Shown: positions 10,058 to 46,622, counted from the stretch's first letter. The stretch is 64,000 bases of DNA from an uncultured Gammaproteobacteria bacterium (GCA_964438425.1 CAYTKM010000005.1:9294-73293); one strand, 5' to 3'. The notes: a model not told the origin generated them from the letters alone. A program made the numbers and translations.

Positions 10058-10138
10058 AATTTATAATATTTTTCTAAAAAGAGGTTTAAATTAGAATTAC
10101 TTTCTAAATAATTAGCAAATTTATAATTTTTTTCTAAA
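10058..10138. repeat. A/T palindrome cluster A (TTAGAA-N5-TTCTAA with flanking direct repeats)
   Basis: ttagaattactttctaa at 10091-10107. aatttataat(a)ttttt(t)ctaaa direct repeats at 10058 and 10118. Confidence 0.5.
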
Positions 10139-10297
10139 TTTAACCGTTTTGTAATGTGTTTAAATTTTAATGAAAATAAAGAAATAATATAGATCTATAA
10201 AATATCTAAGAAATTTTACGATTTGTTATCAATAACTGGCTAAGCTATACCTTGTATGTGTATAAGTTAAGTTTATTAACTAAGGAGCGTATAAATT

Positions 10298-10555
10298 ATG
10301 GCAGGAATTAACAACAACCCAGCACAAGTTCAACAAAGTGCAACTAAAAAAGCTAGTAATCAAGCTGGCGTAAAAGCTAATAAAACTGATAGCACTAGTA
10401 ATCTTAGTGCTGCTGATCAGGCATCTTTAGCTACAGCTAATAAAGAAATGGGTTCAATTCAAAATGGTCTTGGTAGCCTTGCTGATAGTCTGGGTTTAGG
10501 TTCAGTTGCGAAAGTTGCTTTATCAGTAATGGATGCAAATGGTCTATTTGCTTAG
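10298..10555 (+). CDS. small hypothetical protein (85 aa)
   Basis: Strong AAGGAG RBS 8 nt upstream. Ala/Ser/Gly-rich with no recognisable motif. Confidence 0.5.
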   Translation: MAGINNNPAQVQQSATKKASNQAGVKANKTDSTSNLSAADQASLATANKEMGSIQNGLGSLADSLGLGSVAKVALSVMDANGLFA

Positions 10556-10618
10556 TAGATCTAAAATCTAAAATATAAGATTTAAACCATATCACCTATA
10601 CAATTTAACATAACTTTA

Positions 10619-11194
10619 GTGAATAACTGTTATATGTCTAACATAGATCAGGAACTAGATATTTTGTTAAATAAATTGAATTCATATTCTAAAGAAGATA
10701 AAAAAGAAAGTAATCCTGTATCTCGGAAGATTTTCGCTTCAGATAGTGTAAATAAAGCACAGTTACCAGCGAAGATATCTAATAGAAATAACGCTCCCCA
10801 AGGCAGAAAGAGACATATCATGACTACGTTATTAGACGAGTCTGGTAAAGGCTCTAATGACCGTCTATTGGACTATTTAAGTAGCTTGGAAACAACTTCT
10901 AAGTCAGAAGCATACGAAGAAAGAAAAAAGCTTTATTCTACTAAGTATAAAGAAAAAGAATCTTTTAAAATTATCGAAAATAATGAGCCTAAAATAGGCA
11001 CTAGAGTCGATCGCGAAGAGCTAGAACGCTCTAAAATGCTTTTTATCAATCGTGGCAAGAAAAAAGATAAAACTAAATTTAAACAAATTGATTACGAAAG
11101 AGATAATTCTAAGTACATAAACACTACAGCTAAAGTTATTAGTAATAACAACCAATTTGCGCCTTTGCAACTTAAAAAATTTAGTAGTAGATAA
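10619..11194 (+). CDS. hypothetical Lys-rich protein
   Basis: ORF only. The start may be the internal Met at 10634. Confidence 0.4.
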   Translation: MNNCYMSNIDQELDILLNKLNSYSKEDKKESNPVSRKIFASDSVNKAQLPAKISNRNNAPQGRKRHIMTTLLDESGKGSNDRLLDYLSSLETTSKSEAYEERKKLYSTKYKEKESFKIIENNEPKIGTRVDREELERSKMLFINRGKKKDKTKFKQIDYERDNSKYINTTAKVISNNNQFAPLQLKKFSSR

Positions 11195-11452
11195 AAGTTT
11201 AAAAACCCTATTACCCAATAGCTATCAAAACTATTTTACATAATATTTATACTAACCACCATATGCTGTGTTGCGGTTATCGTACGATATATAAAAACTA
11301 TAGCTCAGGTTTTAAATACTTAATCTTCAAATTTCAATTAACTATTACTAGCACAATGTTTCAGGCAGCAATACTCTGTAATATTAGTTCATAGAAATAT
11401 TTATTTATAAGGTTTGCATATATGCATTTCCTTTACTTTTACTAAGAGCTAT

Positions 11453-11506
11453 GTACACTATTATAAATATGTACACTATTATAAATATGTACCATAATAT
11501 AAATAT
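11453..11506. repeat. tandem 18-bp repeat x3 (GTACACTATTATAAATAT)
   Basis: Two perfect copies and one degenerate copy in a 1.1-kb non-coding gap. Confidence 0.7.
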
Positions 11507-11875
11507 CATCAAATCAAATATCAGTGCAATTTGATTAAAGCGTTTTCTAATAAAAATTATTAACAATGTCACAAATCTTTTCTTTAAGTGTTTAAAAGTT
11601 TTTATATGTAAAAATAGGTCACAGAAAATTAAATTCAGCAAATCTTTAATTTAAAAACTACAGTTAGCAAACCCCACCCATACACGTTTAAAATAACACG
11701 CATTTTTCTCATTTCTATTTCAGAAAAGGCTCTCCAGAGGGCTTTATATTTAAGATAACATTGTATTATCTTGAGCGAAATGGGTGCATTGAATTAAGCC
11801 TAAAAATGGTAAGGTTTTATTTCAATTTAGAATATAAATCACATAAAAAATTTCTTACACTTTAGTATAAACTTG

Positions 11876-11904
11876 TTGACACCCATACAAAAATAAGCTA
11901 TTAT
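11876..11904 (+). promoter_or_regulatory. sigma70-like promoter (TTGACA-17-TATTAT)
   Basis: Perfect -35, 17-bp spacer and near-consensus -10. Confidence 0.45.
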
Positions 11905-11990
11905 AAAAGTATGAGCACGAATTAAGTATAAGTAAACCCTCAAAGCTTTAATGTAGATCAAAGCAAATTAATTTGAATACGAACTATTTG

Positions 11991-11999
11991 TGCTATAAT
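11991..11999 (+). promoter_or_regulatory. extended -10 element TGCTATAAT
   Basis: TGnTATAAT lies 26 nt upstream of a small ORF with an AAGGAA RBS. Confidence 0.4.
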
Positions 12000-12024
12000 T
12001 TAATTAACAAACAAGGAAAACAAA

Positions 12025-12180
12025 ATGATAACAATATTAATGCTAACTATATTTGCATGGATATGCGCTTCAATACTTTGCAAAGCTTTCAAGAGATTAC
12101 ATGAAGAACATTCAAATTATACTTTCTCTGAGCTTATACTTTTAGCCATGTCAAATCCACCTAAAAACCAGCAAAGCTAG
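12025..12180 (+). CDS. unannotated small hydrophobic protein (51 aa)
   Basis: ATG has AAGGAA 7 nt upstream. It encodes MITILMLTIFAWICASILCKAFKRLHEEHSNYTFSELILLAMSNPPKNQQS, one predicted TM helix. It is below the ORF-track size cutoff. Confidence 0.45.
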   Translation: MITILMLTIFAWICASILCKAFKRLHEEHSNYTFSELILLAMSNPPKNQQS

Positions 12181-12303
12181 TTATATCAAACTTAATTAAA
12201 TAAATTTTAGAAGAGCCGAAAGCAAATAATGTGATTAGGTTCTTTTTATTTTACATCTTCCTTTCTAGATATAATGATTTAATATCACTTTAAATTAATT
12301 ATT

Positions 12304-13068
12304 ATGTATATTAAACCCCTTTTAGTAATCTTTTTTATTTCACTTACCTGCTTTGCCTGTAATAAATCAAATAATCAAAATATAAAATTTAGAGATACGC
12401 TAGAGCCTGAAAGTTATTGGCTTAAAGCCGCTGGCTCGCGCACCAATATGTTCACTAAAAATGACTTATCAGCTCATATAGACCTCAAACAACTAAAAAA
12501 CATGAAGAACTTAGTGGCTTTAGGTCCCATAGAAAATCTAAAAGGCGAAGTTACTATATATAATGGTCATCCTTATATAACATCTTTAATAAACGATAAT
12601 CAAACAAGTGATAGCAGTTTCAACTATAAAGCTATTTTCTTAGCTTATGGATCCACAAAGGAGTGGCGTGAAATAGTTATCGATAAGCCTCTAGCTAGCT
12701 TAAGTCAGATTGAAGATTTAGTAAGAAAGTACGCATTAGATTTTAATATCGATTTAACTAAAGGCTTTCCTTTTAAGATAGAGGGGGTAGCTACTAGAGC
12801 TCGATATCATATTATTTACCAGAAAGATGCTGGCATAAAGCATACCCCTAAGTTACACCAGCAAGCTAAACAAAAATATACCGTATATGATGAAGCTGTG
12901 AAAATAGCTGGTATTTGGGCTACTCAAGATGGCATTGGTAGATATACTCACCCTGGTACTCAAACACATATGCATGTAATACTAGATAAAAATAATTTTG
13001 GTGGTCATCTCGAGGATATTGAATTAGATGCAGGTATCAAGCTTTTTATACCTAAAGTTAATAAATAA
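12304..13068 (+). CDS. alpha-acetolactate decarboxylase-fold protein with lipoprotein-type signal
   Basis: LVALGPIENLKGEVTIYNGHPY resembles the ALDC G.G.F..LDGE.I..DG.Y motif, and THMHVILDKNNFGGHLEDIELD resembles HLHFIDE..SGGHV.D. The N-terminus has a signal peptide with a Cys. Confidence 0.55.
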   Translation: MYIKPLLVIFFISLTCFACNKSNNQNIKFRDTLEPESYWLKAAGSRTNMFTKNDLSAHIDLKQLKNMKNLVALGPIENLKGEVTIYNGHPYITSLINDNQTSDSSFNYKAIFLAYGSTKEWREIVIDKPLASLSQIEDLVRKYALDFNIDLTKGFPFKIEGVATRARYHIIYQKDAGIKHTPKLHQQAKQKYTVYDEAVKIAGIWATQDGIGRYTHPGTQTHMHVILDKNNFGGHLEDIELDAGIKLFIPKVNK

Positions 13069-13312
13069 AATAGCTTACTAATTAGTTTACATTGCTTAAA
13101 ATTTGTAATTCTTATTGAATGAGTTAACCAGATGCTTTTCTTACACAAGCTACTTAAATATTTTTGATTATTTTATGTAAATTTGCTTATCGGCAGGCGA
13201 GTTTAAATACACTCAGAGCCTAAGCACTTTGTATTATTGTCATTCACATCTATGAACTAGTATATTTAATCCTAAAGTAAAGCTAACTTTACATAATTAG
13301 GGAATTAAATAT

Positions 13313-14092: not shown

Positions 14093-14126
14093 AGTTAAAT
14101 TTTCATATTTGTTATAATATGGTTAA

Positions 14127-14600
14127 ATGGACTCTGTAAATAGTGGTGCTTCAAATGGTTATATAACCCCAGTATCAGATAACCCTAATACATTAGATTT
14201 TGAGACTTGGCAATCTCAACGCCAGAAAGTGCGCAAAGATGAACAAAATCAAGTATCTGAAGCACAAAATAACAAAGATCAAGAGCGCTTAAAACAAGCC
14301 AGACTTCATGCAAATTATTATAGCCTCCCAGAACAAAGTCCAGACAATAAAGAAAGTCCATACGTTCAAATGATGGATAAGAAAATATGGGGTGGAAAAT
14401 CAACCGCTGAGATATTGGATTCTACTATATGGTTTAAAGCAGAGAAGAAAATGGGAATGTCTTATAATGTTCTTTCATTACCTATGAAAGTGTACTTCAA
14501 TAAAAACCTAAGAAACATGTCGATGGTATTCCTTGAGAGTCCTAAGCATTTAGTAAATCTGATTAAATACATAATTACAGATCAAAGACCCAAAAAATAA
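14127..14600 (+). CDS. hypothetical protein
   Basis: 157-aa ORF, Gln/Asn-rich N-terminus. Confidence 0.4.
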   Translation: MDSVNSGASNGYITPVSDNPNTLDFETWQSQRQKVRKDEQNQVSEAQNNKDQERLKQARLHANYYSLPEQSPDNKESPYVQMMDKKIWGGKSTAEILDSTIWFKAEKKMGMSYNVLSLPMKVYFNKNLRNMSMVFLESPKHLVNLIKYIITDQRPKK

Positions 14601-14639
14601 GCATTAGCGATTATTTGCTAATGCTTATTTTTTTACTTT

Positions 14640-16160: not shown

Positions 16161-18968
16161 TTACTTACCCTTAAAAAATTCAATACCCGACTCTATTTTT
16201 TTTAGATCTGGCTTAAATATATCTAACATAATACGATTGTTAGTAAACTTAACAATTTTTTGTTTAATCTCTTCTTGCTGCTTACCTAAATAAATCAAAA
16301 AAGCATTTTTAATTTCCTGAAATTCAGGTTTAGTATAATGGCTCTTATCAATATTTTTTAATTTTTCGATCATTTTTTCTGAGTACATTTTCTTATTTAA
16401 AGATTCTAAAGATAAAGCTGGTGGAAGTTCAGTATTTAAATATATAGAAGTAATTTTTGCTAACTCTTTAATAGTTTTGGAATTTAAGTCTATGTCATTT
16501 GTAATAAAAAGTTTAAAATCTGCTATAACTTTAGATAGTTTATTCAAATTTTCTTGATTAGGTTTATTAGCCTGTTCACTATGAAAATCTGCCTGAGTCG
16601 TATTATCAAATTCTAAATTAATATTACTTTTGATAACTTGGCCATTACCAGTAACGGGCAAGTTCTTTCTAACACTAATTTCAAAAGGCTTTTGCTTATC
16701 ACTTAGAATACTCATAAGCTTGTAGCTCACATTATTAAACGTAGTACGACTTAATTGGAACAATTTACTATAAAATTCATTATCTCTATCTTGCATTGGT
16801 AATTTAGAAGCTAGTTGCATTTTGTATTTATCAGGAATTCTAGTTGAACTAAAGAAATCGTAAAGTTTTTGATCAAGTTGAACTCCTTGACTTTGAAAGG
16901 AATCACCAATAGCATCAATAATCTGTTCAGCGTATTTTTTCTGAAGTTTATAAACAGAACGAATTTGCTCTAAATCCTTAGTCTTGAAGTTTAGTTTATC
17001 CTCAAAACACTTTAAAAAATTTCTAGCACTACCTTTAAGACAAAGTGTAAATAAATTTTCACGAAAATGATCTAAATCTGATTGCGGCACAATATTAGGT
17101 AGTTCTTTAGATAAAGGATGCTCGTTTTGAAGTAAATGCTTTATAAAATACAGTTTTTTATCGTAGCTGTTTAAACTTAAGTAATTTTTCTGTAAGTCTT
17201 GCACATCTTCATTTGTAAGTTTTGCGGCTTGACTAGCTACGAAATCTAATTCATTTAATGCTGAATCTCCAAAATGGTTCATACTTTTAGTAGCTTCTGT
17301 AGCAGTAGCAGCCACAAAGCTTTTATGCCAGTATAGCCTAGCTTGGTCAGCCTTAGTAAACTTTTCATCCAAGAATAGACTTCTAACAAACTGTGATTTT
17401 TTATCTAACAATTTATGGTAAGTATCTTCAGATAAAACTTTTTCAAGTGGTAATCTCAAAACTTTAATACCAAATTCAGCTTTAAGTAATTTAAAATATT
17501 CTGCTTCATCTTTTAACAAATACCCAAAATCATCGAAACCATTAAGCTTAGTTGAGTTTAATAGTTTATCAATATCATTATTCATAATAGCTTTAGCTAA
17601 ATAAGATGGCTCAGGTAAAGCAGTTATTATATTTGACTTTAAAGTTTGATCTTTATTATCACCGCACTTATGCTGCTCTATATAAAATAATGCGCGCGCT
17701 CTAAAAACTTCCTCTAAGGAATTAGTCAGTGCTTCTATAAATAAGTCAGGTTGAGCTATTAAATTTTTATTAGCTTTATTATCATAATAAGCTAAGGTTT
17801 TTAAAAATATATTCAATGATTCTGGTTCAGTAGATAATTTTTGTAATGTTTGTTTTAGCATCGGCTTCTTTTTGCCATTTTCACTAAAATCTATAGCTGC
17901 ACTTAACAGTAAATGCTGTCTATCACTAAAACCTTTTAAGTATTCTAAGCCATTATTAAGATCATCAAACTCAGGTTTAATAGAATTTTCTTGGTATAAC
18001 TCAAGATCACAAGATAACAATTTTCTAGCTTCCTTGCGACGCTGATTATATTCCTGAAAATTATTAAATTCACTATCGTCTTGAGGCATTCTTGATGGTT
18101 GCAAGCAAGTAGGGAATAAAGTACCTGTTATTGAATCTCTAGTATTTAAAAATTGTTGTAGATTAGCTTTGTTCTTTACACCTGCACTATAGTCAATAAA
18201 ATACACTGAGTTATGGGTTAGCACCATTGATAAATCATAATGTGACAATTGTAAATCAGGCACTGATGGTTTAGCATCAGTAGGATGGTTGTGAGCTATC
18301 AGCACATCAGCTGTAGGGTTAGATTTAGGATAATTATTATAGATAGGATTTAAAATTGCATCTGAAATATTTTCACATAACATTTTATATTGCTCCTGAT
18401 CATTTAAAACTCTATAAGTACTTAAATCAGTTAAATCTTTAATTTGATAATTCACATTATCTCGGTCACCCGATAAGACTTTAAGGTTTTCTGAATTTAG
18501 TGGTTGCTTAATATTATTTGATTTATTATCAGCGCTATTACCTGTATAGATAGTCATACTAGATGTATCATTACTCTTATCAGGCTTATAAGCAAGCAAA
18601 TATTCTTTAATTTCTGGTAATTCTAAATGCTTGCCCATTAGAGCTATTATAGGAAACTCTCCTTCAGTGAATTTTGTAACCATAATTTCAGTTAATTCTT
18701 TTAGATGCTGAAAGTTTTTAGGATTAAAAGTTTTCTGAGCCAATAGCTGTCCTTGAAAAGTTTTATTAGCCTGATTACCGTGGAAATCTCCCTGAATCGT
18801 ATTATTAATATCAGAGTCTGCATCTTTATTAGGAGGTATTAAGCTTGGACTATCACTTTTTACAGTAGGCATGGCTTGCTTTATAGCTTTAACATCAACA
18901 GTATCAGTGATTAAATTTTTAGGCTGCGTTGAGATGTTTAAAATTAGCTGATGTGCTGATAGTTTCAT
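16161..18968 (-). CDS. large lineage-specific protein with JAMM/RadC-like HNHP motif and N/C-terminal 15-aa repeat
   Basis: 935-aa ORF. LIAHNHPTDAKPSVPD resembles the JAB HxH..S..D motif. NNTIQGDFHGNQANK near the N-terminus is repeated as DNTTQADFHSEQANK near the C-terminus. Confidence 0.55.
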   Translation of the reverse strand: MKLSAHQLILNISTQPKNLITDTVDVKAIKQAMPTVKSDSPSLIPPNKDADSDINNTIQGDFHGNQANKTFQGQLLAQKTFNPKNFQHLKELTEIMVTKFTEGEFPIIALMGKHLELPEIKEYLLAYKPDKSNDTSSMTIYTGNSADNKSNNIKQPLNSENLKVLSGDRDNVNYQIKDLTDLSTYRVLNDQEQYKMLCENISDAILNPIYNNYPKSNPTADVLIAHNHPTDAKPSVPDLQLSHYDLSMVLTHNSVYFIDYSAGVKNKANLQQFLNTRDSITGTLFPTCLQPSRMPQDDSEFNNFQEYNQRRKEARKLLSCDLELYQENSIKPEFDDLNNGLEYLKGFSDRQHLLLSAAIDFSENGKKKPMLKQTLQKLSTEPESLNIFLKTLAYYDNKANKNLIAQPDLFIEALTNSLEEVFRARALFYIEQHKCGDNKDQTLKSNIITALPEPSYLAKAIMNNDIDKLLNSTKLNGFDDFGYLLKDEAEYFKLLKAEFGIKVLRLPLEKVLSEDTYHKLLDKKSQFVRSLFLDEKFTKADQARLYWHKSFVAATATEATKSMNHFGDSALNELDFVASQAAKLTNEDVQDLQKNYLSLNSYDKKLYFIKHLLQNEHPLSKELPNIVPQSDLDHFRENLFTLCLKGSARNFLKCFEDKLNFKTKDLEQIRSVYKLQKKYAEQIIDAIGDSFQSQGVQLDQKLYDFFSSTRIPDKYKMQLASKLPMQDRDNEFYSKLFQLSRTTFNNVSYKLMSILSDKQKPFEISVRKNLPVTGNGQVIKSNINLEFDNTTQADFHSEQANKPNQENLNKLSKVIADFKLFITNDIDLNSKTIKELAKITSIYLNTELPPALSLESLNKKMYSEKMIEKLKNIDKSHYTKPEFQEIKNAFLIYLGKQQEEIKQKIVKFTNNRIMLDIFKPDLKKIESGIEFFKGK

Positions 18969-19235: not shown

Positions 19236-20444
19236 TTAAAATATATCTAAATTAATAAATTCAAGCTGATCAAAGCTTATAAATTCAACACAAATACCAT
19301 GATAATCTAAAGTTGTATTAAGGTTTTCATTTATTATAAAGCCTTTTTGGGTTTTAGGGTAAGCTGAAATAAATTTTTCAAAGCTTTTAGGGATATTTGC
19401 AACTTTCAAGTTAGATTTAACTTCAAATATATATGGTAGTTGATTTTTAATATATACAAAATCAATTTCATCACCTTTTTTAGTACGCCAAAATCTCAAC
19501 TCAGCATTAGGTGGCAGTTGTGTATATAAAAAATTATGAACATATGTTTCATGTATTAAACCTTTATCATCACGCAATTCTATAGATTTGAAATCACTTA
19601 AAATCATATTTCTAATTCCAGAATCATATAAGTAATATTTTTTAGATTTTTTTAGTTCATTACTTAAATTCTTAGCATAACTATGAAGAGAATAAAGTAC
19701 AAAAGTCTCTTCTAAAACATAAAGGTAATTTTCTAATTCTTTAGCACTTATTTTTAATTCATTAGCCAAACTTGCTATAGCAATGATTTGTCCTTGTCTT
19801 GCTGCTAATAAATATAACAATTTATTAAAGGCAGGTACATTTTGCTCGGCAATAAGTGATTTAATGTCCTTTAAAATATATGTAGCAAGTAGATTCTGCA
19901 ATTCTTTAATTTTATTAGCTTCATCTTTTATATTAATTAAAGCTGGCAGCGCGCCATATAGAAAATAATCAGCTAAACTATTATTGATTTGACTGTATTC
20001 ATTAAAGTTTAAAGGATATATTATTTCTTGATTTTTTCTTCCAGCCAAACTTTCTTTAAGGTGTTTATGAATCTCAAGTGAAGATGAACCTGAAGCGATA
20101 ATTTTAATATCTTTACTTGGATCATCATAAATAGCTTTAAAAAACTTGGAAGCATTATTAAAGTATTGAAATTCATCTATAAATATATAATCAACATTAT
20201 CAGTAATATCTTCATACAATTCAACTAAGTCTTGACTAAAGTAACGACTATCTTTAGGAATTTCTAGGTTAAAGTATTTAGCTCTCTTAGCTTTATCCTC
20301 TATAAACTGCTTTAGTTCTAATAATAAGTGAGTTTTGCCAACTTGCCTGGCTCCAATTAAAATTAGTATTTTAGAATTAGCTAAATCTTGTTGAAGATAC
20401 TCGTAAATAGTTCGTGTTATTAAATAGTTAGAGTTACTAGACAT
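19236..20444 (-). CDS. AAA+ ATPase, COG1373 family (AAA_14 + DUF4143)
   Basis: Walker A GARQVGKT, Walker B IFIDEFQ, SLAGR motif. Paralog of the 20766 gene. Confidence 0.7.
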   Translation of the reverse strand: MSSNSNYLITRTIYEYLQQDLANSKILILIGARQVGKTHLLLELKQFIEDKAKRAKYFNLEIPKDSRYFSQDLVELYEDITDNVDYIFIDEFQYFNNASKFFKAIYDDPSKDIKIIASGSSSLEIHKHLKESLAGRKNQEIIYPLNFNEYSQINNSLADYFLYGALPALINIKDEANKIKELQNLLATYILKDIKSLIAEQNVPAFNKLLYLLAARQGQIIAIASLANELKISAKELENYLYVLEETFVLYSLHSYAKNLSNELKKSKKYYLYDSGIRNMILSDFKSIELRDDKGLIHETYVHNFLYTQLPPNAELRFWRTKKGDEIDFVYIKNQLPYIFEVKSNLKVANIPKSFEKFISAYPKTQKGFIINENLNTTLDYHGICVEFISFDQLEFINLDIF

Positions 20445-20663
20445 TGTTTTTAGATTAGATTTTTAGTAGATTTATTTCTTTTAATTAGATTTTATTAAGT
20501 CATTATATTAACTTAACAAGCTTCGTTACCATTTTACCACTTTCAAGCAGAATAGTAACAATGGCACTATTTTATATGTTTATGCTATTTAGTAACAGTA
20601 AACAGACTAAATACAAAAGTTATACTATTTAACAAAGATTATTTCATATTAATAGTTTTTGTC

Positions 20664-20759
20664 TCGACTAATCTAAAATTAGACTTTGGATTAGTCGAGA
20701 TTTTGCTTGACAAATATTATATATTTCGACTAATCTGAAATTAGACTTTGGATTAGTCG
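20664..20759. promoter_or_regulatory. two copies of a 35-bp operator-like palindrome flanking promoter-like elements
   Basis: tCGACTAATC-N15-GATTAGTCGa occurs at 20664-20698 and 20726-20759. TTGACA and TATATA lie between, immediately upstream of the 20766 start. Confidence 0.45.
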
Positions 20760-20765
20760 GACATA

Positions 20766-21986
20766 ATGGATAATATAAAAAGAACATTAACGCAAACTAT
20801 CAAAGAAACTAGTGACAGTTTTAAAGTTTTATTATTAACAGGACCCAGGCAAGTAGGTAAAACTACACTTTTGCAGGAAGTACAAAAAAAAACTCGTTCA
20901 TATATTACTTTAGATGATTTAGATATGCGGCTAGCTGCACAAAAAGATCCTGCTAGTTTTTTAGATCGTTTAGATTTTCCAGTATTAATTGATGAAGTAC
21001 AATATGCACCAGATTTATTTCCATACATAAAAATGATCGTAGATAAAGAAAAAACGCCAGGTATGTTTTGGCTCACAGGTTCGCAGCAATTTGAAATGAT
21101 GAAGAATATCAATGAATCCTTAGCTGGTAGAGTAGCAATTTTAAATTTGCAAGGAATTTCACTTGCTGAAGAGCAAAATCGACCAAACGATAAGCCATTT
21201 TTACCCACCTTAGAATTATTAAAGTCTCGCAAAAAAGCTAAACCTTTAAGCTTAACTGCTGCGTATCATATAATCTGGCGTGGTTCATACCCTGATGTAG
21301 TGATTAGAGATGGTAAAAATTGGGAGCGTTTTTATAGTTCATATCTTTCAACTTATATTCAACGTGACGTCAGAGAATATCTAGACATTCAAGATACAGC
21401 TTCTTTTCATAAATTTATGGGTATAGCTGCTGCAAGAACTGGACAACTAGTAAATTATACTGATATCGCTCGAGATGTAGGAGTAAGTCAGCCAACTATA
21501 AAAACTTGGATAAATGTGTTACAAGCTTCAGGAATTATAACTTTACTTCAGCCTTATTATAATAATCAAACTAAGCGCTTAGTGAAAAGCCCTAAATTAT
21601 ACTTTATGGATACTGGGCTCTGTTCATATTTAACTGGCTGGTTGAATGAAGATGTTTTAGAGCGTGGTGCAATGTCTGGAGCTATACTTGAGACTTGGGT
21701 AATATCAGAAATAATTAAGTCATATTTACACCATGGACGTAAACCGCGTATCTATTTTTACAGAGATAAGGATAAACGTGAAGTTGATGTTTTAATTGAA
21801 GAGAACGGTGTATTGCACCCTATAGAAATTAAGAAAACAGCTTCGATCAGAAATATGAAATTCAAAGGTTTTGATATGCTTGACAAACTCGGAGTGAATA
21901 TCGGTCACGGAGGTGTGATGTGTTTTACTCAGTCATTAATACCGATTTCAAAAGGTATTGATGCTATACCTGTGGGGTATTTGTAA
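20766..21986 (+). CDS. AAA+ ATPase, COG1373 family (AAA_14 + DUF4143)
   Basis: Walker A GPRQVGKT, Walker B LIDEVQ, SLAGR motif. Confidence 0.7.
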   Translation: MDNIKRTLTQTIKETSDSFKVLLLTGPRQVGKTTLLQEVQKKTRSYITLDDLDMRLAAQKDPASFLDRLDFPVLIDEVQYAPDLFPYIKMIVDKEKTPGMFWLTGSQQFEMMKNINESLAGRVAILNLQGISLAEEQNRPNDKPFLPTLELLKSRKKAKPLSLTAAYHIIWRGSYPDVVIRDGKNWERFYSSYLSTYIQRDVREYLDIQDTASFHKFMGIAAARTGQLVNYTDIARDVGVSQPTIKTWINVLQASGIITLLQPYYNNQTKRLVKSPKLYFMDTGLCSYLTGWLNEDVLERGAMSGAILETWVISEIIKSYLHHGRKPRIYFYRDKDKREVDVLIEENGVLHPIEIKKTASIRNMKFKGFDMLDKLGVNIGHGGVMCFTQSLIPISKGIDAIPVGYL

Positions 21987-22238: not shown

Positions 22239-22313
22239 TGGTGCTGGGGATAGGATTCGAACCCACGACCGCCTGATTACAAGTCAGATGCTCTACCAAC
22301 TGAGCTACCCCAG
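22239..22313 (-). tRNA. tRNA-Thr (anticodon TGT)
   Basis: Manual fold: GCTGGGG acceptor, D-arm GCTCAGTTGGTAGAGC, anticodon loop CTTGTAA, T-arm GGTTCGAATCC, 3' CCA. Confidence 0.85.
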
Positions 22314-22429
22314 CTCACGAATTAAAATTATAGCAAAAAGATTTTGAATAACTTTTATTTTGCTAGACTTATAGTTTTTTTTAATTTTTTAGGCAATTAG
22401 GTTTGAAGTAATGCTGTAAAATTGTCCAT

Positions 22430-22466
22430 CCGTGACCGCCTGATTACAAGTCAGATGCTCTACCAG
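22430..22466 (-). other. partial duplicate of tRNA-Thr (internal 37 nt, 1 mismatch)
   Basis: ccgtgaccgcctgattacaagtcagatgctctaccag matches tRNA positions 22265-22299. It lies 117 bp from the intact gene. Confidence 0.7.
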
Positions 22467-22573: not shown

Positions 22574-22650
22574 TTAGAAATAAATTCTAAAAAACGCCCA
22601 AATTTAGAAAATTACTATAAATTAGCACTAAATTTAGAAAATAATTCTAA
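22574..22650. repeat. A/T palindrome cluster B (two TTAGAA-N5-TTCTAA sites plus a half-site)
   Basis: 22574-22590 and 22634-22650. aatttagaaaatt half-site at 22601. Confidence 0.5.
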
Positions 22651-22825: not shown

Positions 22826-23260
22826 TTAAATTACACTTGACTTATCGGCATCAGTAACCAGCTTGTCTAAGTTTTCAGCACTTTCAATTATATTTTTTTT
22901 CTCTAATGTTTTTATAACTCTAACCCCATGATGCAAAGTTTTAGACATTAAAATATGCTCGTCTTCAACTTCCATCACTATAAACTCTGTACCATCATCT
23001 AGAACCTCTTTTTGAACTAAATTAATCTTGTATTTTTGTTTAAGTCTAGAGCTAGGACCCACACCCTTTAATAAACCAAATTTTTCTTTTAGAAAATCTG
23101 GCACTACCCAGCTACCACTTTTAATTTTTTGGACTGCGTAATTACTAAATAACCAGAGAAACAGTAAAAATATTAAAACCGTATAAAACCTAGCGCTGAT
23201 ACTGTTAGTTATATTAGTAGGATTAGCTTCTGTCTCTATTAAGGCGGCAAGTAATATCAT
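22826..23260 (-). CDS. hypothetical membrane protein
   Basis: 144-aa ORF with a hydrophobic N-terminal half. Confidence 0.4.
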   Translation of the reverse strand: MILLAALIETEANPTNITNSISARFYTVLIFLLFLWLFSNYAVQKIKSGSWVVPDFLKEKFGLLKGVGPSSRLKQKYKINLVQKEVLDDGTEFIVMEVEDEHILMSKTLHHGVRVIKTLEKKNIIESAENLDKLVTDADKSSVI

Positions 23261-23707: not shown

Positions 23708-24544
23708 CTAATTAACCTCAAAATCGAAAAAAGCTTGCCTAATATATAATTTATCAGGTAATTCTACTTCACTTATTAAGTCTTCTATGTCCTGCTCATC
23801 TTCAATATAGCTAGCTGCAATCATACGCCAAATAGCTTTTTGGTTTTCATCCTCACCCTCTACAAAAGCTTCTTGATACTTATGTAATTTAAATTTTATA
23901 GATTGAAAGAATTCAATCAGATTTTCTTTATTATAAGCATGGGTATAATTATCATTTAAGATTTTTTCAAAGGCTGAACTAGTATTTAGAATCAGCTCTT
24001 CTTTAGTACGCTCATATAGCTTTAAATAAAAACTATAGTTAGCTTTAATAATATTACGCTCTAAAAGACTGATTTCACTAAAAGTAATCGAAGGCATAGC
24101 TAAGTTAAAGATAAAGTGAGCTCCAGGCTTCATACTTAACTTTAATTGAACTGCAAGATCGGTTAAATTACCAAATAAGTGAAAACTGCTAAGCGCATAT
24201 GCCAGTGACAAATTTTTATCAAAATACTGAGCTAAATTATTAATAGAGTCATTAATATACTCAACATCATGCTGTAAACGCTGGCAGGCTTTATCTATCA
24301 TAGGCTTTGAAGGCTCTAGCACAATCAGCTTTTGGTTGTCAGCCAGCTCGTTTAAAATTATATGACTAGAGATACCAGTACCTGCACCGAGATCTATTAC
24401 TAAATCTTCTTTAGAGTCTTTAGAAGTAAAGTTCTTAGGATTAGCTATTTCAACAGCATTTTTTGAACTTTGTAAATACAAAAAGTCGGTATTTTTATAA
24501 ATTTCACTAGTTTTAGTACTTAAAAAAGGATTATTAACTGACAA
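23708..24544 (-). CDS. class I SAM-dependent methyltransferase
   Basis: Motif I VIDLGAGTG. Starts 2 nt after the FliN-like stop. Confidence 0.6.
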   Translation of the reverse strand: MSVNNPFLSTKTSEIYKNTDFLYLQSSKNAVEIANPKNFTSKDSKEDLVIDLGAGTGISSHIILNELADNQKLIVLEPSKPMIDKACQRLQHDVEYINDSINNLAQYFDKNLSLAYALSSFHLFGNLTDLAVQLKLSMKPGAHFIFNLAMPSITFSEISLLERNIIKANYSFYLKLYERTKEELILNTSSAFEKILNDNYTHAYNKENLIEFFQSIKFKLHKYQEAFVEGEDENQKAIWRMIAASYIEDEQDIEDLISEVELPDKLYIRQAFFDFEVN

Positions 24545-24545
24545 A

Positions 24546-25478
24546 TTATACTCCTACGGTGAGTCCTAACTCTGAACCGATATCCATACTACCAGCTAGT
24601 TGAGTTATTCTGAGCCCGAAACTATCATCTATAACTACTACTTCACCTCTAGCGATGATCTTATTATTCACAAACAAATCTACTGGCTCGCCCGATAAAC
24701 GATCAAGCTCAATTACTGAACCTTTAGTTAGCTTTAAAATGTCTCTAAGTTGCATTTCAGCCCGGCCTAATTCGACAATTAGCCCCATACGAATATCCAT
24801 GAGTAAGTTTAAATTTCGTTGCTCATTTACATCTTCAGTAGGCTGAGATTTCATGTTCGCAAAATCTACATCATTTACTTTAGCTCCAGAACTTAAATCT
24901 AAACTAATGTCTTTAAAATCTTCTAAAATTTGTTTAATTAAATTTTCACTTATGTTTAAGTAGGCTTCAGACTTAAAATTATCACCTATACTTAGCTCAG
25001 CTAAGATAGTAAAATAATTGGATTCATCTTTAAATTTTAAAGTCTCTTCATCATTGGTATCGATAACCTTGGCTTCAAAATCATCAAACATTAAAGTAGC
25101 GTTTTGATTTTTAGAAAGTAACATATGTAAAGTTGAAGTTGTGACTTGTGAGATTACTTCTTTAACAGCATCTGCACTTTCTTCATCTAAAGCTTTTTTA
25201 TCAGCACCACTTGCAGCAGCAGCTAAGTTTTCAGCTAAATCTTCTTCTAGAACATAAGCTAAAGAACCAAGTTCTTTTTCAGTAGCTGATGCATTTACAA
25301 GTAAAGATTTATTTTCGACATTTTGCACTTGGCCAGCTTCAATCTGAGTTTTACTAAAGTTTTTTACAGATAGATCGAATTCGGCATTTAGAGTTTGCGC
25401 CATGTTAGTTGCATACTCAGAGCTTACTTTTTGTAAAAATTCGATGAAACTTTGCTGTTCTTGGTCGTTTAAAGGCAT
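24546..25478 (-). CDS. FliN/FliY-like switch protein (SpoA domain, CheC-like N-region)
   Basis: C-terminal [50 protein letters not shown] is a typical SpoA/FliN domain. The upstream [19 protein letters not shown] resembles a CheC/FliY segment. Confidence 0.6.
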
Positions 25479-25526: not shown

Positions 25527-25612
25527 GGCTTAAAAAGCTTTGATCATGATAGTTAAAAGTACTATTTTAGGCTTAAAAAGCTTTAATCATGATAATTAAA
25601 AGTACTATTTTA
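25527..25612. repeat. 43-bp tandem duplication (2 copies, 2 mismatches)
   Basis: ggcttaaaaagcttt(g/a)atcatgata(g/a)ttaaaagtactatttta x2, 50-135 bp upstream of the FliN-like start. Confidence 0.8.
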
Positions 25613-25813
25613 AGCTTGAAAAAATTAATTTGTAAAGATAAGCGCTATCAGTTAAATCTCAGGTTTTAGTATTCAAACTAAAAATTTAAAAAGTATAATT
25701 AGAGAATTCAAAGATATAAAATTAGATTATTTAAGGTAATACTACTATAAATACAATTAAATAAATAATTAAAGTGATGCAAAAATATAAAGCTTAGTAA
25801 AACTCAGAAAAAA

Positions 25814-32233: not shown

Positions 32234-35110
32234 ATGATGTTCGATAAGTTCTTGAAGTTACTTGCAGGTGATCCTAACGGTAAAAAACTAAAAAATATGC
32301 ATAAGATCGTCGATAAAGTAAATGCTTTAGAAGATGAAATTAGTAAATTAAGTGATGACCAGCTTAAAGCTAAAACTGACGAATTTAGAAAACGTCTTGA
32401 TGACAGAATTACTAACACTACTTTTGAAGTTTTAATCGCCGATGATGTTTCTAGAATGCCAGGTCAGCTCAGAACTACTCACGATGTAGCGCTTGCTGAA
32501 GAACTAGAAAATATTATGCCAGAAGCTTTTGCTGTATGTCGCGAAGCTGCTAAACGTGTACTAGGTATGAGGCATTATGACGTGCAGATTATTGGTGGCG
32601 CTCAGCTTCACTATAATGGAATCGCTGAAATGCAGACAGGTGAAGGTAAAACATTAGTGGGTACTCTAGCAACTTATCTAAATGGTTTAAGCGCGCGTGG
32701 CGTGCATGTGATCACGGTAAATGATTACCTAGCAAGAAGAGACTCTGAGTGGATGGGTAAATTATATAAATGGCTAGGTCTTACTGTAGGTTTAGTAGCC
32801 AGTAAAATGCCACCTCCTGAGCGTAAAGCAGCTTATAACTGTGACATCACATATGGTACAAATAATGAGTTTGGTTTTGATTATCTAAGAGATAATATGG
32901 AATCTAAGTTAGAAAGCTGCGTGCAACGTCCATATTATATGGCGATCATTGATGAAGTCGATAGTATTTTAATCGATGAAGCTAGAACACCACTAATAAT
33001 TAGTGGTATGCCTGACAAACGTAAAAATGAGATTTATCAGGCAATGAGCCAAGTGGTTAAACATCTAAACCGCGCTGAAGGTGAAAAAGACACTAATATA
33101 AATGCTCACTATTATATAGATGAAAAAGCTAAAAACGCTATTTTAACTGAAGCTGGTATTAAAAAAGCTGAAGAAGTGCTTAAGGTAGATGATTTATGGA
33201 ACCCTGAAACTAATTTAGCGCACCATCTAATCCAGGCTTTAAGAGCTAAAGATTTATATGTTAGAGACACAGATTATATTATTCAGGTAAATCCACAAAG
33301 CAAGAAAAAAGAAGTAGTTATTGTTGATGAGTTTACTGGACGTTTGATGGAAGGTAGACGTTGGGGTGATGGTTTACATCAGGCTGTCGAAGCTAAAGAA
33401 GGCGTGCCCATCCAAGAAGAAACTTTAACAATGGCAAGCATTACTTTCCAAAACCTGTTTAGACTATATCCTAAGCTCGCTGGCATGACTGGTACTGCTG
33501 AAACTGAAGCTGAAGAGCTAAATAAAATCTATAATTTAGAAGTACTAACCATCCCGACAAACAAACCATGTCAGCGTGATAATCTAAACGACATCGTATA
33601 TAAATCTGAGCAATTAAAATTCTTTGCGATAGCTGAAGAAGTAGTGAAAGTTCATAATAAAGGCAGACCGGTTTTAATCGGTACTACAAGTATTGATAAA
33701 TCAGAGTTTTTAGGCACAATATTATCTAAACCAATGTTTGCTCTGCAAATTTTAGAAAAGCGTTTAGCTAGATTTAACGTTTTAAGCTCTCAAAACGGCG
33801 TTGACGTACCAGCTGAACTGAAAAAAGCTTTTGAAAAACCTGGTACTTTAAAACTTAGTGCTATAGAACCGTATTTAGAGAATTTAAAGAAACAGTGCGC
33901 TAAAAAAGAGGAATTGAAGTTCGCTTTAGACACTTTTTTAGATACTTTAGAAGTGCTAGATGCCATCAAGTCTGGACTAAAGTTTACTGTTTTAAACGCC
34001 AAGCATCATGAGAAAGAAGCTGAGATTATCAGACAAGCAGGTAAACCTGGCGCTATTACTATCGCAACCAATATGGCTGGCCGTGGTACTGATATCGTGC
34101 TTGGTGGTTATTTATCTAATGATCCTAAGGACCCGAACTATGAAGTAGTAGATAAAGAAGCTCAGGCGAAAGTGATTGCAAGTGGTGGCTTGCATGTAAT
34201 TGGTTCAGAAAGGCATGAAAGCCGTCGTATAGATAATCAGCTTAGAGGTCGCTGCGCTAGGCAAGGTGATCCTGGTACATCGAGATTTTTCTTATCACTT
34301 GAAGATAACTTAATGCGTATTTTCGGTGGCGATAAGATGATCAGCATTATGAATATGCTTAATGCTGATGATGATACTCCGATCGAAGCTGGCATTATCA
34401 CAGGTGCGATCAATAATTCTCAGAAAAAAGTTGAAGGTCATCATTTCGATATGCGTAAGCATGTACTTCAGTATGATGACGTCGTTAATACCCAAAGAGA
34501 AGTTATCTATCGCGAGCGCCGCAAGATTTTAGAAGGCGGCGATATCCATCAAAATATCATCAATATGATTAATCTTCAGGCTGAAGGTGCTGTTTATCAG
34601 TTTTTAAATGCTGAAGCTAATACTGATTTATGGTTTGATAGCAGTAGCGGAGCTAGTCCGATTCAGAAGTGTTTTGAACAATTGAAAACGATCTTCACTG
34701 AAGAAGTTACTGAACATATGTCACCTATGGAAGAATTTAGGGAATTAGGTTTTGATGCTTTAGTCCACCAAGCTAAGGAAGCAGCTCTTAAAATATTTAC
34801 TCTACAAGAAAATAGTTGTGGTTTAGATATTTTAAAAGCAGCTGAAAGACAGATCATGCTTCATGTAATCGATAATAAGTGGATTGGTCATCTGCATGCG
34901 ATGGACGCCCTTAAAGACGGTATCCATCTTCAAGGTTACGGTCAAAAAGATCCACTTGTTGAATATAAAAAAGAAGCTTTCAATATGTTTGATGAACTTT
35001 TATTTGATATCAAGCGTGATACAGTAACTTTACTGTTCCATGCACAGATTATTAACCGCACCAATGCACCTATGGATGGTAATCCTGAAGCTGCTAATAG
35101 CATGAAGTAG
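32234..35110 (+). CDS. secA: preprotein translocase ATPase SecA
   Basis: MQTGEGKT Walker A, DEVDSILIDEARTPLIIS, TNMAGRGTDI. It carries a ~90-aa insertion before the NAKHHEKEA segment. Confidence 0.9.
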   Translation: MMFDKFLKLLAGDPNGKKLKNMHKIVDKVNALEDEISKLSDDQLKAKTDEFRKRLDDRITNTTFEVLIADDVSRMPGQLRTTHDVALAEELENIMPEAFAVCREAAKRVLGMRHYDVQIIGGAQLHYNGIAEMQTGEGKTLVGTLATYLNGLSARGVHVITVNDYLARRDSEWMGKLYKWLGLTVGLVASKMPPPERKAAYNCDITYGTNNEFGFDYLRDNMESKLESCVQRPYYMAIIDEVDSILIDEARTPLIISGMPDKRKNEIYQAMSQVVKHLNRAEGEKDTNINAHYYIDEKAKNAILTEAGIKKAEEVLKVDDLWNPETNLAHHLIQALRAKDLYVRDTDYIIQVNPQSKKKEVVIVDEFTGRLMEGRRWGDGLHQAVEAKEGVPIQEETLTMASITFQNLFRLYPKLAGMTGTAETEAEELNKIYNLEVLTIPTNKPCQRDNLNDIVYKSEQLKFFAIAEEVVKVHNKGRPVLIGTTSIDKSEFLGTILSKPMFALQILEKRLARFNVLSSQNGVDVPAELKKAFEKPGTLKLSAIEPYLENLKKQCAKKEELKFALDTFLDTLEVLDAIKSGLKFTVLNAKHHEKEAEIIRQAGKPGAITIATNMAGRGTDIVLGGYLSNDPKDPNYEVVDKEAQAKVIASGGLHVIGSERHESRRIDNQLRGRCARQGDPGTSRFFLSLEDNLMRIFGGDKMISIMNMLNADDDTPIEAGIITGAINNSQKKVEGHHFDMRKHVLQYDDVVNTQREVIYRERRKILEGGDIHQNIINMINLQAEGAVYQFLNAEANTDLWFDSSSGASPIQKCFEQLKTIFTEEVTEHMSPMEEFRELGFDALVHQAKEAALKIFTLQENSCGLDILKAAERQIMLHVIDNKWIGHLHAMDALKDGIHLQGYGQKDPLVEYKKEAFNMFDELLFDIKRDTVTLLFHAQIINRTNAPMDGNPEAANSMK

Positions 35111-35116
35111 AATTAT

Positions 35117-35219
35117 AAAAATTTTCTAAAAAACATTGAAATCTGTAAAAATTTTCTAAAACATACCCAAATTTAGAAAATTTTTACAATTTAGACCTTT
35201 ATTTAGAATTTTCTTCTAA
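35117..35219. repeat. A/T palindrome cluster C (AAAATTTTCTAAA x3 and TTAGAA-N5-TTCTAA)
   Basis: Direct copies at 35117 and 35147, an inverted copy at 35169, and the palindrome at 35203-35219. The cluster sits between the convergent secA and polA ends. Confidence 0.5.
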
Positions 35220-35298
35220 ATAATAAATAGCTAGTTTAAAGCTTTAGATCTAAAAAACTCAGAACGTAATAACTTCAAAGACGAACTTAAATATAGAT

Positions 35299-43687: not shown

Positions 43688-44227
43688 AGTTTTTACATGA
43701 GTATCTGTTAAATTTAAGTTAAAAGTTGAAATCTAAGTAAGATTGATTTTTCTCATTGATATTGGCAAGCTAGATATTACTTATGATTAAATTTTTTGTA
43801 TAAGTTTTGTGAAATTTACATTTTAAAATTACTATATGTAAGTTTCCAGTGCGTTAAGTATGAGTTTATTATAGTTTAGGCTATAGATTATAAGAGATTT
43901 TAAGCTAAATTTTGTTTAAGTTGAAAACTATTCTAGGGTTATATCAATTAAATTCTTTCTTAGCTAAATTTTATATCAAGATCTATTTAGCTTAATAAGT
44001 TAAGATATGTATTTAGAATATAGTAACCTTCAAGAATCCAATGCTAGTTATTAAATTCTATAAAATAAAGATTTTTTCTCAAATCTTATAAATAGATATT
44101 ACTTCTATTCTTTCAAATTAAATTGAATGCCTGCTAGTCAACATTTAATAAGCTTAAAATATACTAAGTATAAATCTATAAACTAATTTTAGAAACTGAC
44201 ACTTATAAAATATTAGAATTATAGTTA

Positions 44228-45166
44228 ATGACTGATACGAGCACCAAAAACTCAGCACTCTTAAAAACCAAGCTGGCACATTTAGAATTAGATAATCCGA
44301 TTATGCCTGCATCTGGTTGTTTTGGATTTGGGGCTGAGTTTGATAGGCTATATGATTTAGATTTACTAGGAGCCGTTGCCCTTAAGGCAACGACATTAGA
44401 AACGCGCGCAGGTAATCAAACAGCGCGCGTAGCTGAAACCGAAGCTGGCATGCTAAATGCGATCGGCTTGCAGAACCCTGGCTTAGAAAAAGTGCTTTTA
44501 GAAGAATTGGCACTTTACCAACATAAAAAAACTAAGGTTATTATGAATGTTGCTGGTAATGGTATAGAAGATTACCAGCAGGTCGTAGCTAAGTTATGTC
44601 AGCATGCAAGTGTAAGTGGCATCGAGCTTAATGTATCTTGTCCTAATGTAAAAAAAGGTATTATGTTTGGCTCAGATCCTAAGATGCTCGCCGAGCTAGT
44701 TAAAGAAGTAAAGCCAGTTACTAATAATAAGCTACTAATAGTTAAGCTTTCACCTAATGTAACAGATATAAAAGTGATGGCAGGCGCCGCGATCGAAGCT
44801 GGCGCTCAGGCGCTCAGTCTGATTAATACTTTAATTGGCATGCGCATTGATCTAAAAACACGCAAACCTATTATCGCTAATAAAACAGGTGGACTTTCAG
44901 GTCCAGCTATTAAACCAGTAGCTATTAGAATGATTTATGAAGTTTACCGTGAATTTCCGCAGATACCCATCATAGGTATGGGGGGTATTAGTAATTTAGA
45001 TGATATGCTTGAATTTTTTATGGCTGGTGCCAGCGCGCTTGCCATAGGTACTGCTAACTTTGTTGATCCATATATTTGCCCGCAATTAATAACTGAATTA
45101 ACTGAATATATGCTTAAAAACAATATCAAATCTTTAAATCAGCTTATCGGCGCTGCTCACAGTTAA
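44228..45166 (+). CDS. pyrD: dihydroorotate dehydrogenase, class 1
   Basis: MPASGCFGFG...GLQNPG and NVSCPN active-site cysteine motif. Confidence 0.75.
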   Translation: MTDTSTKNSALLKTKLAHLELDNPIMPASGCFGFGAEFDRLYDLDLLGAVALKATTLETRAGNQTARVAETEAGMLNAIGLQNPGLEKVLLEELALYQHKKTKVIMNVAGNGIEDYQQVVAKLCQHASVSGIELNVSCPNVKKGIMFGSDPKMLAELVKEVKPVTNNKLLIVKLSPNVTDIKVMAGAAIEAGAQALSLINTLIGMRIDLKTRKPIIANKTGGLSGPAIKPVAIRMIYEVYREFPQIPIIGMGGISNLDDMLEFFMAGASALAIGTANFVDPYICPQLITELTEYMLKNNIKSLNQLIGAAHS

Positions 45167-45482
45167 AACTTTAAAAAAGTAAGACTTTTACAATTTATTT
45201 AAAGTGTTCGATTGCTATAAAGCAAATTATTATTGTAAAGCTAGATTATTTATCTAACTAATTCTAAGTTCAGATTTAGTTTTAGGTACAGCTGAAATAT
45301 TCAAATAAATTAAATATAATACTTAATTTAAAACTATCTATAAAATTTTATCTTTAAATCTCTAGATAATTCTATATTTCAGTTGCTTAATTAATTTAAA
45401 ATTCACTTATCAGCTGTTTAAATTTAGTCAGCTTCCATGACTTTATATGCTTATAAATTTTACCTAAAAAATATATAAAATT

Positions 45483-46622
45483 TTAATTCTCAGCTTTAAA
45501 TCTATTTAAAATAGCCTGAGAAAATACATTATTTGGGTATGTTTTAGCTAGCTCAACAAAACTTTTTCCTTTATAAATATTTCTAGAATTATTGGTACTA
45601 CTTTTATCTGAGTTATTAGTAGTATTATATTTTAAATTATCTCTAGTAGTATCATTAGCAGCAAAAGGGACTTTATTTAAATCTATACTATGTACGAGAG
45701 TTTCAAGTAAATTAGTCTTAATAGACTGTTTTTTATGATTTTGATTAATATTAAGATTGTTACTAATATCAGCTAGCACTTTAAAGGGGTTAGGATCAAA
45801 AGTAGTCTTTAGACTTTCTGTTAACTTAGCTTGAGTCAACTTTATATTTTTAACTAACTTAGAATTATTTTCCTGAAGCTCTACTGGTAATTTCAAAGTT
45901 TTTAAGGTCGTATTAGTACTTTTATAATCTGTTGCATTTTGTTTCATTAAAAAGTTACTAGCTATAATATTTTCAGCGACGTTTAATTTACTTTCACTAT
46001 CAGCTGACACAGTTTGAGCTGGCGAAAGCAGATCAGCTTGCAGGTATTCATTAAGAGCATTTTCTTTAGCTGCTAATTTATTTAGGATTATCTTAGCAGT
46101 GTCTATAAAGCCTTTTTCTAATGCTAATTTAAGTAGAGGTTTGTTTAAGCTAGCATCAGTATCAGCAGTATAAATAGTATTAGGCTTAGTAGTACCCAGC
46201 TCTAATTGAAAATTTAGCAAATGTTTGAGTGCACTTTGACCTTTGGCAGGAGCAAGCATATTCATCTGTCTATAAAATACTTTAGAGTTTGCTATTTCAT
46301 CGATGTCATTTAAATTAACAGGTGAGCTTTTAGCAGGGTCATGATTAGAATATTTTTTTAAATTTAGACCAGAATTAGAAATTTTTTTTAAATTACTTCT
46401 ATTTTTAGAATAAATTTCTAAATTTTCGTGATTTTTAGAATTATTTTCTAAGTCATTATTAGTATTAGGACTAGAGCTAGTGCTTAAGGTTTGATATTCA
46501 GAACTATTATTTAAAATTAAACTACCATCAAAAAAAGGCTTCTTGATATGTTCTAAGGGATTTCCAGTATACGAATTATTATGCAACACAACTATTATAT
46601 TAACTAAAATAACAGCCAGCAT
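45483..46622 (-). CDS. Asn-rich hypothetical protein, paralog of the upstream gene
   Basis: Shares with the 46643 protein a C-terminal L.D...KIDINK..AAN....KSF.ELAK..P.N.FS.AI block. The N-terminal region overlaps two TTAGAA-N5-TTCTAA palindromes, so the true start is uncertain. Confidence 0.45.
   Translation of the reverse strand: MLAVILVNIIVVLHNNSYTGNPLEHIKKPFFDGSLILNNSSEYQTLSTSSSPNTNNDLENNSKNHENLEIYSKNRSNLKKISNSGLNLKKYSNHDPAKSSPVNLNDIDEIANSKVFYRQMNMLAPAKGQSALKHLLNFQLELGTTKPNTIYTADTDASLNKPLLKLALEKGFIDTAKIILNKLAAKENALNEYLQADLLSPAQTVSADSESKLNVAENIIASNFLMKQNATDYKSTNTTLKTLKLPVELQENNSKLVKNIKLTQAKLTESLKTTFDPNPFKVLADISNNLNINQNHKKQSIKTNLLETLVHSIDLNKVPFAANDTTRDNLKYNTTNNSDKSSTNNSRNIYKGKSFVELAKTYPNNVFSQAILNRFKAEN

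Follow-up and report, generated by a model that had tools for sequence, protein, structure and literature searches.

Exactly phased tandem dyads, mostly at gene ends, in a Melainabacteria-like genome: candidate platforms for a DNA-wrapping protein

A 64-kb stretch of DNA from an uncultured bacterium (CAYTKM010000005.1:9294-73293; "the window" hereafter means this stretch at its full length) carries four tandem arrays of a short, imperfect, A/T-rich dyad, and a fifth array lies in the sequence beyond its right end. A preliminary description of the window had listed palindromes of the form TTAGAA-N5-TTCTAA in clusters at four loci; that observation is confirmed here and sharpened, in that what recurs is arrays of phased dyads and not scattered palindromes. 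We regard the exact 30-bp phasing of three or four sites on DNA predicted to be curved as the decisive feature, and what it suggests is a DNA-wrapping oligomer that binds cooperatively. Our tentatively preferred reading is that the arrays are platforms which an oligomer of dimers binds cooperatively and wraps, with an operator architecture like that of the Lrp/AsnC family.

The six perfect TTAGAA-N5-TTCTAA sites were recovered where they had been reported (starting at 10091, 22574, 22634, 35203, 46405, and 46435), and their excess over chance is clear: dinucleotide-preserving shuffles of the window, which has a G+C content of 31.5%, averaged 0.06 sites, with a maximum of one. The extra half-site copies that had been seen beside them proved to be degenerate units, with TTATAA, TTTTAA, TTACAA, CTGTAA, or CTATAA halves, in exact register with the perfect sites. 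Each cluster is a tandem array of three or four units with an exact 30-bp period, a feature missed in the earlier account, and the arrays span 77-107 bp. The window is contained in a 333,781-bp metagenomic contig (Ga0450804_2518132). About 39 kb of flanking sequence was added through look-ups of the proteins at the window edges and of a neighboring insertion sequence (IS) transposase, giving ~103 kb in total; this extension yielded one new array (A5) and one lone site. There are thus 14 units in four arrays in the window, and 18 units in five arrays over the ~103 kb (Table 1), and all 13 distances between neighboring units are exactly 30 bp. The same period emerges from the window as a whole, where distances between like hexamers show sharp peaks at 30 and 60 bp and distances from TTAGAA to TTCTAA peak at 11, 41, and 71 bp; Tandem Repeats Finder (TRF) independently gives a 30-bp period for A1 and A3.

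Within the unit, conservation covers an imperfect dyad of 17 bp, or 23 bp with its flanks (aaT-TTAKAA-wwwww-TTCTAA-Att), and information content is limited to this dyad and some three flanking bases per side. Dyad centers consist entirely of A/T in 15 of the 18 units, the other three having one G/C base. When the arrays were aligned together with their flanks, neither the center of the 13-bp spacer nor the array flanks were conserved; since conservation is confined to the dyad, the pattern argues for selection acting on site and phase rather than for copy-and-paste of an element. A position weight matrix (PWM) built from the array units gave a bimodal distribution of scores: the 14 units of the window score 16.6-24.9 bits, the next best position in the 64 kb scores 11.6, and there is no solitary high-scoring site in the window, which is the pattern expected under cooperative binding. 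The sole lone high-scoring site in the ~103 kb is TTAAAA-AATAT-TTCTAA (L019 18482-18498; PWM score 20 bits), which lies within a 1097-aa open reading frame (ORF).

Table 1. Phased dyad arrays in the window and its right flank, with the reading frame that contains A4 (positions counted from the first letter of the window unless a contig is named).
Feature	Position	Strand	Units and cores	Further properties
A1	10061-10137	+	3 units; 10061-10077 TTATAA-tattt-TTCTAA; 10091-10107 TTAGAA-ttact-TTCTAA; 10121-10137 TTATAA-ttttt-TTCTAA	TRF period 30; PWM 20.5-22.2 bits; predicted curvature in top 0.5-0.6% of window
A2	22574-22650	-	3 units; cores at 22574, 22604, 22634	PWM 18.6-24.9 bits; predicted curvature in top 0.2%
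A3	35113-35219	.	4 units; cores at 35113, 35143, 35173, 35203	Predicted curvature rank 1 in window
A4	46345-46451	-	4 units; cores at 46345, 46375, 46405, 46435	Predicted curvature in top 0.2%
A4 host ORF	45483-46622	-		379-aa Asn-rich ORFan; called at full length by NCBI, JGI, and ENA
A5	L018 positions 4, 34, 64, 94		4 units	~9.2 kb beyond right end of window

The window is 85% coding, yet four of the five arrays are intergenic (binomial P ~0.002 given that coding fraction); all five lie just 3' of a gene, two of them (A3 and A5) between convergent genes, one (A4) is in coding sequence, and no divergent promoter region contains any of the five. With each array oriented along the transcription of the gene that ends beside it, the distal half of the dyad is TTCTAA in 18 of 18 units, whereas the proximal half is TTAGAA in just seven, with TTATAA (7), TTAAAA (2), and TTATAG, CTGTAA, and TTGTAA (1 each) in the others; in every unit at least one half is perfect. 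The units of an array share one orientation, with a single flip, in the middle of A3, where each half of the array follows its own converging gene: the invariant TTCTAA is on the plus strand in units 1 and 2 and on the minus strand in units 3 and 4. Because the data themselves decided how each array was oriented, the significance of this directionality is modest, roughly 1/32 to 1/64.

The immediate surroundings of the four window arrays had been given correctly in the preliminary description, namely ahead of an 85-aa gene (A1), by tRNA-Thr (A2), between secA and polA (A3), and within an Asn-rich ORF (A4). A1 lies 85 bp past the stop codon of a SpoIID gene and 160 bp ahead of the 85-aa gene. 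A2, whose middle unit reads TTAGAA-aatta-CTATAA, lies 176 bp past the stop of an ORF at 22826-23260 on the minus strand and, on that strand, upstream of a tRNA-Thr fragment and of tRNA-Thr itself. The fragment is an exact 32-nt copy of part of the tRNA, from the D-arm through the variable region (22434-22465, identical to 22267-22298); it sits between the tRNA and A2, 120 bp upstream of the intact gene (22239-22314, minus strand), and may be the scar of a duplication or integration. A1 and A2 face inwards and bracket a 10-kb run of ORFan genes (10.3-19 kb), at the end of which, beside tRNA-Thr, are two divergent paralogous genes for AAA_14/DUF4143 ATPases (19236-21986).

A3 fills the gap between the convergent secA (stop codon at 35108-35110) and polA (stop at 35299), starting 3 bp after the secA stop, and its second and third units form a 17-bp inverted repeat (35146-35162/35174-35190). 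A5 similarly lies between convergent genes, one for a CofH-like radical-SAM protein and one for a histidine-kinase-like protein, the TAG stop of the former being contained in the first TTAGAA. A4 is found 190 bp past the stop of the upstream 472-aa gene and in the 5' part of its host ORF, where it covers amino acids 57-92; since 30 is a multiple of three, the array stays in the single stop-free frame of the ORFan, in which it is read and encodes a 10-aa repeat. The first 118 codons of this ORF score like real genes (0.56 versus 0.63 ± 0.16), and a homology search with the 379-aa product returned nothing besides itself.

Predicted DNA shape gives the wrapping reading independent support. In both of two wedge models applied to 120-bp segments, predicted curvature in the window is highest at the arrays, all four of which fall in the top 0.6%, and the predicted curvature of A5 is similar to theirs. 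When the period was changed in silico, predicted curvature peaked at 30-32 bp, was abolished outside ~29-33 bp, and was gone at periods of 27 bp or less and 35 bp or more. Only two other segments of the window, 24421-24580 and 17061-17200, have array-like predicted curvature; neither is an array, and one of them is at the junction of a methyltransferase gene and a FliN-like gene.

A role of the repeats in RNA finds little in the data. For five of seven array strands, RNA folds were no better than those of shuffled sequences (z-scores of -0.4 to -1.6, or positive); Rfam matches in the window are two tRNAs only, with nothing at the arrays; and no terminator-like site was found at any array, including A3, though canonical hairpin terminators occur elsewhere (for example, at 14592-14633 and 54836-54870). 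Half-site variants such as TTATAA, TTAAAA, and TTGTAA come with no compensating change in the partner half. An RNA structure or terminator is rejected on these grounds, and the uncompensated half-sites together with the mostly unremarkable folds place the constraint on duplex DNA and not on a hairpin.

What kind of protein would use such an array? Lrp-family dimers bind imperfect inverted repeats of 13-17 bp with an AT-rich center; their sites come in clusters of imperfect copies spaced two or three helical turns from center to center, ~100 bp is wrapped around three dimers or an octamer, and specificities vary widely within the family (PMC2995911). Both the repeat and the cluster have their counterpart here, in units that are imperfect inverted repeats of the right size with an AT-rich center, and in three or four such units, three helical turns apart, within about 100 bp. 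Homologues of BarR have four or five regularly spaced 15-bp sites with spacers of 15-17 bp (PMC10201364); our unit can be read as a 15-bp core and a 15-bp spacer, so that the period agrees, at 30-32 bp. The E. coli Lrp consensus is yAGhAwATTwTdCTr (PMC5554404), and the array consensus, TAGAAAATTTTTCTA, satisfies it, with 14 of the 14 window units matching at two mismatches or fewer.

We infer from this architecture that a protein binds the arrays, and propose on the same grounds what it might be and what the complex might do. Each array would be a platform on which an oligomeric DNA-binding protein made of dimers docks, one dimer to each dyad. Adjacent dimers would sit on one face of the already curved DNA, separated by three helical turns, and ~90-120 bp would then be wrapped by an octamer made of four dimers, or by three to four dimers acting together. 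Leading candidates for the binder would be proteins of the Lrp/AsnC (feast/famine) type. Given that most arrays lie where transcription units end, convergent genes among them, an architectural role seems the better choice over classical promoter control, and the complex might constrain supercoils or block read-through.

Several points weigh against such a platform. Pfam searches and precomputed Pfam annotation revealed no Lrp/AsnC gene and no other obvious cognate gene in the ~103 kb examined. The arrays do not have the control-region setting of Lrp sites: A3 and A5 are between convergent genes, A4 is in an ORF, and only A1 and A2 are possibly promoter-proximal. The Lrp consensus is barely enriched in the AT-rich window (82 matches versus 63.6 expected), so the sequence match is compatible with an Lrp-type binder but not diagnostic of one, and the curvature estimates depend on the wedge parameters used. 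With no Lrp/AsnC gene in the region and such atypical placement, our tentative claim is limited to the arrays working like an Lrp-type wrapping platform, and they are not claimed as Lrp sites. A bolder version, which we think improbable, is that the arrays position a nucleosome-like particle genome-wide: pre-curved tracts, with three helical turns to each unit, would receive an octameric wrapper at transcription-unit ends, where it would insulate topologically or against read-through, with incoming transcription setting the orientation of the invariant half-site.

The main rival to the wrapping platform is a family of extragenic palindromes resembling the repetitive extragenic palindromic (REP) sequences and bacterial interspersed mosaic elements (BIMEs) of enterobacteria, in other words a lineage-specific repeat, selfish or domesticated, that spreads to gene 3' ends; we consider this possible, if rather doubtful. 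Such a repeat could be mobilized by an enzyme of the RAYT type, could act in 3' untranslated regions on mRNA stability, or could be a gyrase site; BIMEs are bound by gyrase and IHF. The distribution speaks for it. The arrays are dispersed in unrelated contexts (at 10.1, 22.6, 35.2, 46.4, and 73.2 kb), with a density of about one per 20 kb; their preference for extragenic DNA, their position 3' of genes, and their orientation along the upstream gene are what a REP or BIME would display, and REPs and REPINs too are extragenic palindromic units with many dispersed copies clustered at 3' ends and in convergent gaps. The inverted doublet in A3 is REPIN-like, and A4 lies in-frame inside an ORF, as Rickettsia palindromic elements (RPEs) can.

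Lineage specificity fits a REP-like family as well. The SecA encoded in the window has best matches that are just 69% identical and places the organism among the Melainabacteria, near Caenarcaniphilales. In 91 kb from four relatives (L013, L014, L022, and L023; 66-69% SecA identity) we found neither arrays nor analogous phased palindromes, where ~4.4 arrays would be expected at the density of the window (P ~0.01). In two of them, L014 and L022 (12869-14866), secA is followed by pabB and a gene for a BFN-domain protein and then by the convergent polA; in the present genome these two genes are absent from the secA/polA junction (35111-35298), and A3 is there instead. Searches with two-unit and three-unit patterns of genome and metagenome contig collections, neither of which contains the source genome, and of a viral contig collection returned only unrelated matches, the viral one being a coding repeat of a giant virus. 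On the sequences compared here, the arrays appear restricted to this lineage. The metagenome matches include three TTAGAA-N5-TTCTAA sites at a 30-bp period in L007 (2907-2985; also in L009 and L010), which have a conserved spacer, tatcggaccWaatg; these are unrelated metagenome contigs of 47% GC, with the sites in apparently non-coding DNA, and are not informative on the present arrays.

Against a REP-like origin stands the anatomy of the arrays. REPs are GC-rich, form stable hairpins, have conserved linkers, and alternate in orientation, whereas the units described here have weak, A/T-rich stems of 6-9 bp in which half-site changes go uncompensated, and are mostly in one orientation per array. 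Neither termini nor flanks nor linker motifs are conserved, and the spacers, although not conserved in sequence, are exact in length (13 bp), for which copy-and-paste gives no explanation. No RAYT (Y1 transposase) gene is present in the 103 kb. The initial suggestion of a small REP- or MITE-like family (miniature inverted-repeat transposable element) is weakly supported, in that the arrays are dispersed and mostly extragenic, and falters on the missing conservation of flanks, termini, and linkers and the missing alternation and stable hairpins. A MITE or larger mobile element in particular is rejected: a MITE would be conserved from end to end and have terminal inverted repeats and target-site duplications, and conservation here is confined to the dyads, with array flanks that do not align and no conserved ends.

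A CRISPR array, which consists of 23-50 bp repeats and unique spacers of ~26-72 bp, is likewise rejected for these loci, where repeats of 17-23 bp alternate with spacers of 7-13 bp. The contig has a genuine CRISPR array elsewhere: the 29 kb of same-contig sequence to the left of the window, in which we found no dyad array, carries a type II CRISPR-Cas locus along with IS and toxin-antitoxin genes. The locus (L019 7565-9124 and 9168-15110; ~10-19 kb left of the window) has ~24 repeats with a 66-bp period and comprises cas2, cas1, and a 1133-aa Cas9-like gene (HNH_4, RuvC_III), an IS3-type transposase pair being inserted between cas2 and cas1. Tandem repeats of other kinds occur in the window: a 43-bp repeat (2.2 copies, 92% identity) at 25527-25623, between a FliN/SctQ-like gene and tRNA-Val, and an 18-bp repeat (3.2 copies, 92% identity) at 11450-11506, within a 1.1-kb segment (11195-12303) that has no ORF of at least 90 aa and no Rfam match.

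The arrays might instead be centromere-like or chromosome-organizing sites bound by a protein of the ParB, KorB, ParR, or Noc type, comparable to sopC, parC, or the KorB operators, a reading that we judge improbable. In its favor, arrays of dyads recur at roughly regular intervals irrespective of promoter geometry, and the outer bases, TTTAG...CTAAA, recall the KorB operator, TTTAGCSGCTAAA. The regularity breaks down over the longer range: a 12-kb spacing does not persist, with no array between -19 and 10 kb or between 46.5 and 73 kb. The 103 kb also lack a parA, parB, or parR-like gene, canonical parS has an unrelated motif, and for three to four sites with a period of three helical turns an octamer is a better fit than a ParB that spreads.

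We consider it very improbable that the arrays are classical operators through which a dimeric, perhaps CodY-like, transcription factor would control the 85-aa gene, tRNA-Thr, and the ORFan. A1, A2, and A4 are indeed upstream of co-directional genes or start codons, and the dyad symmetry is as it should be; but A3 and A5, placed in convergent gaps, have nothing downstream of them to control, and a simple dimer has no need of three or four phased sites, lone sites being what one would expect. The resemblance to a CodY box suggested at the outset did not hold: the box, AATTTTCWGAAAATT, is not enriched in the window (17 matches at three mismatches or fewer, versus 19.5 expected), and just three array units reach even three mismatches. 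CodY is moreover a Firmicute protein, and the host is placed in Melainabacteria by its SecA. What survives of the proposed dimeric regulator is the imperfect dyad, its A/T center, and the uncompensated half-sites; a simple operator does not, since the 30-bp phasing points to an oligomer.

Low-complexity sequence arising by chance, a minisatellite in coding DNA, or an error of assembly could be invoked for an AT-rich genome in which one array is coding and gives a 10-aa repeat, but these are effectively refuted by the six perfect sites versus 0.06 expected, by the same core at five unlinked loci, four of them non-coding, and by independent assemblies from other samples that are 99.99-100% identical across A1 and A3.

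If the arrays do bind an Lrp-like or other oligomeric wrapper, they would be unusually clean, sequence-defined sites for it, phased dyads on pre-bent DNA at gene ends. This would suggest an architectural or insulating use of a type of protein familiar elsewhere as a regulator, and in a phylum that has hardly been studied, the Melainabacteria being the non-photosynthetic sister group of cyanobacteria, and it would offer a simple motif for mapping domain boundaries in such genomes. Should the arrays be REP-like instead, they would represent a new kind of repeat, one that maintains only a protein-sized dyad and its helical phase.

Among known systems, several share features with the arrays. RPEs are also dispersed repeats able to sit in-frame in the genes of an AT-rich genome, but they are 100-150 bp long, conserved over their whole length, and unlike arrays of short phased sites. 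Centromere and operator arrays of plasmids (sopC of F, with 12 repeats of 43 bp and a 7-bp inverted repeat in each; those of pSK41; parC of R1; and KorB O_B of RK2) are similar in that short dyads, tandem or dispersed, nucleate a higher-order nucleoprotein complex, but they adjoin their own par genes and conserve their linkers too, and their periods and motifs differ from those described here. NrdR boxes are tandem 16-bp palindromes about three helical turns apart that bind an oligomerizing repressor; there are just two of them, only upstream of nrd genes, and the motif is different (acaCwAtATaTwGtgt). The Lrp/AsnC arrays, such as the three-box operator of Ss-LrpB, the BarR sites of Sulfolobales, and the E. 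coli Lrp sites at ilvIH and pap, have the most in common with ours: A/T-centered imperfect dyads of 15-17 bp, in three to five imperfect copies some 30-32 bp apart from center to center, with ~100 bp of DNA bent or wrapped there by three to four dimers. The differences lie in setting and polarity, for Lrp/AsnC operators sit in the promoters of amino-acid metabolism genes, whereas the present arrays recur at intervals of some 20 kb, for the most part 3' of genes and in convergent gaps and once in an ORF, and have one invariant half-site, TTCTAA, oriented by the upstream gene.

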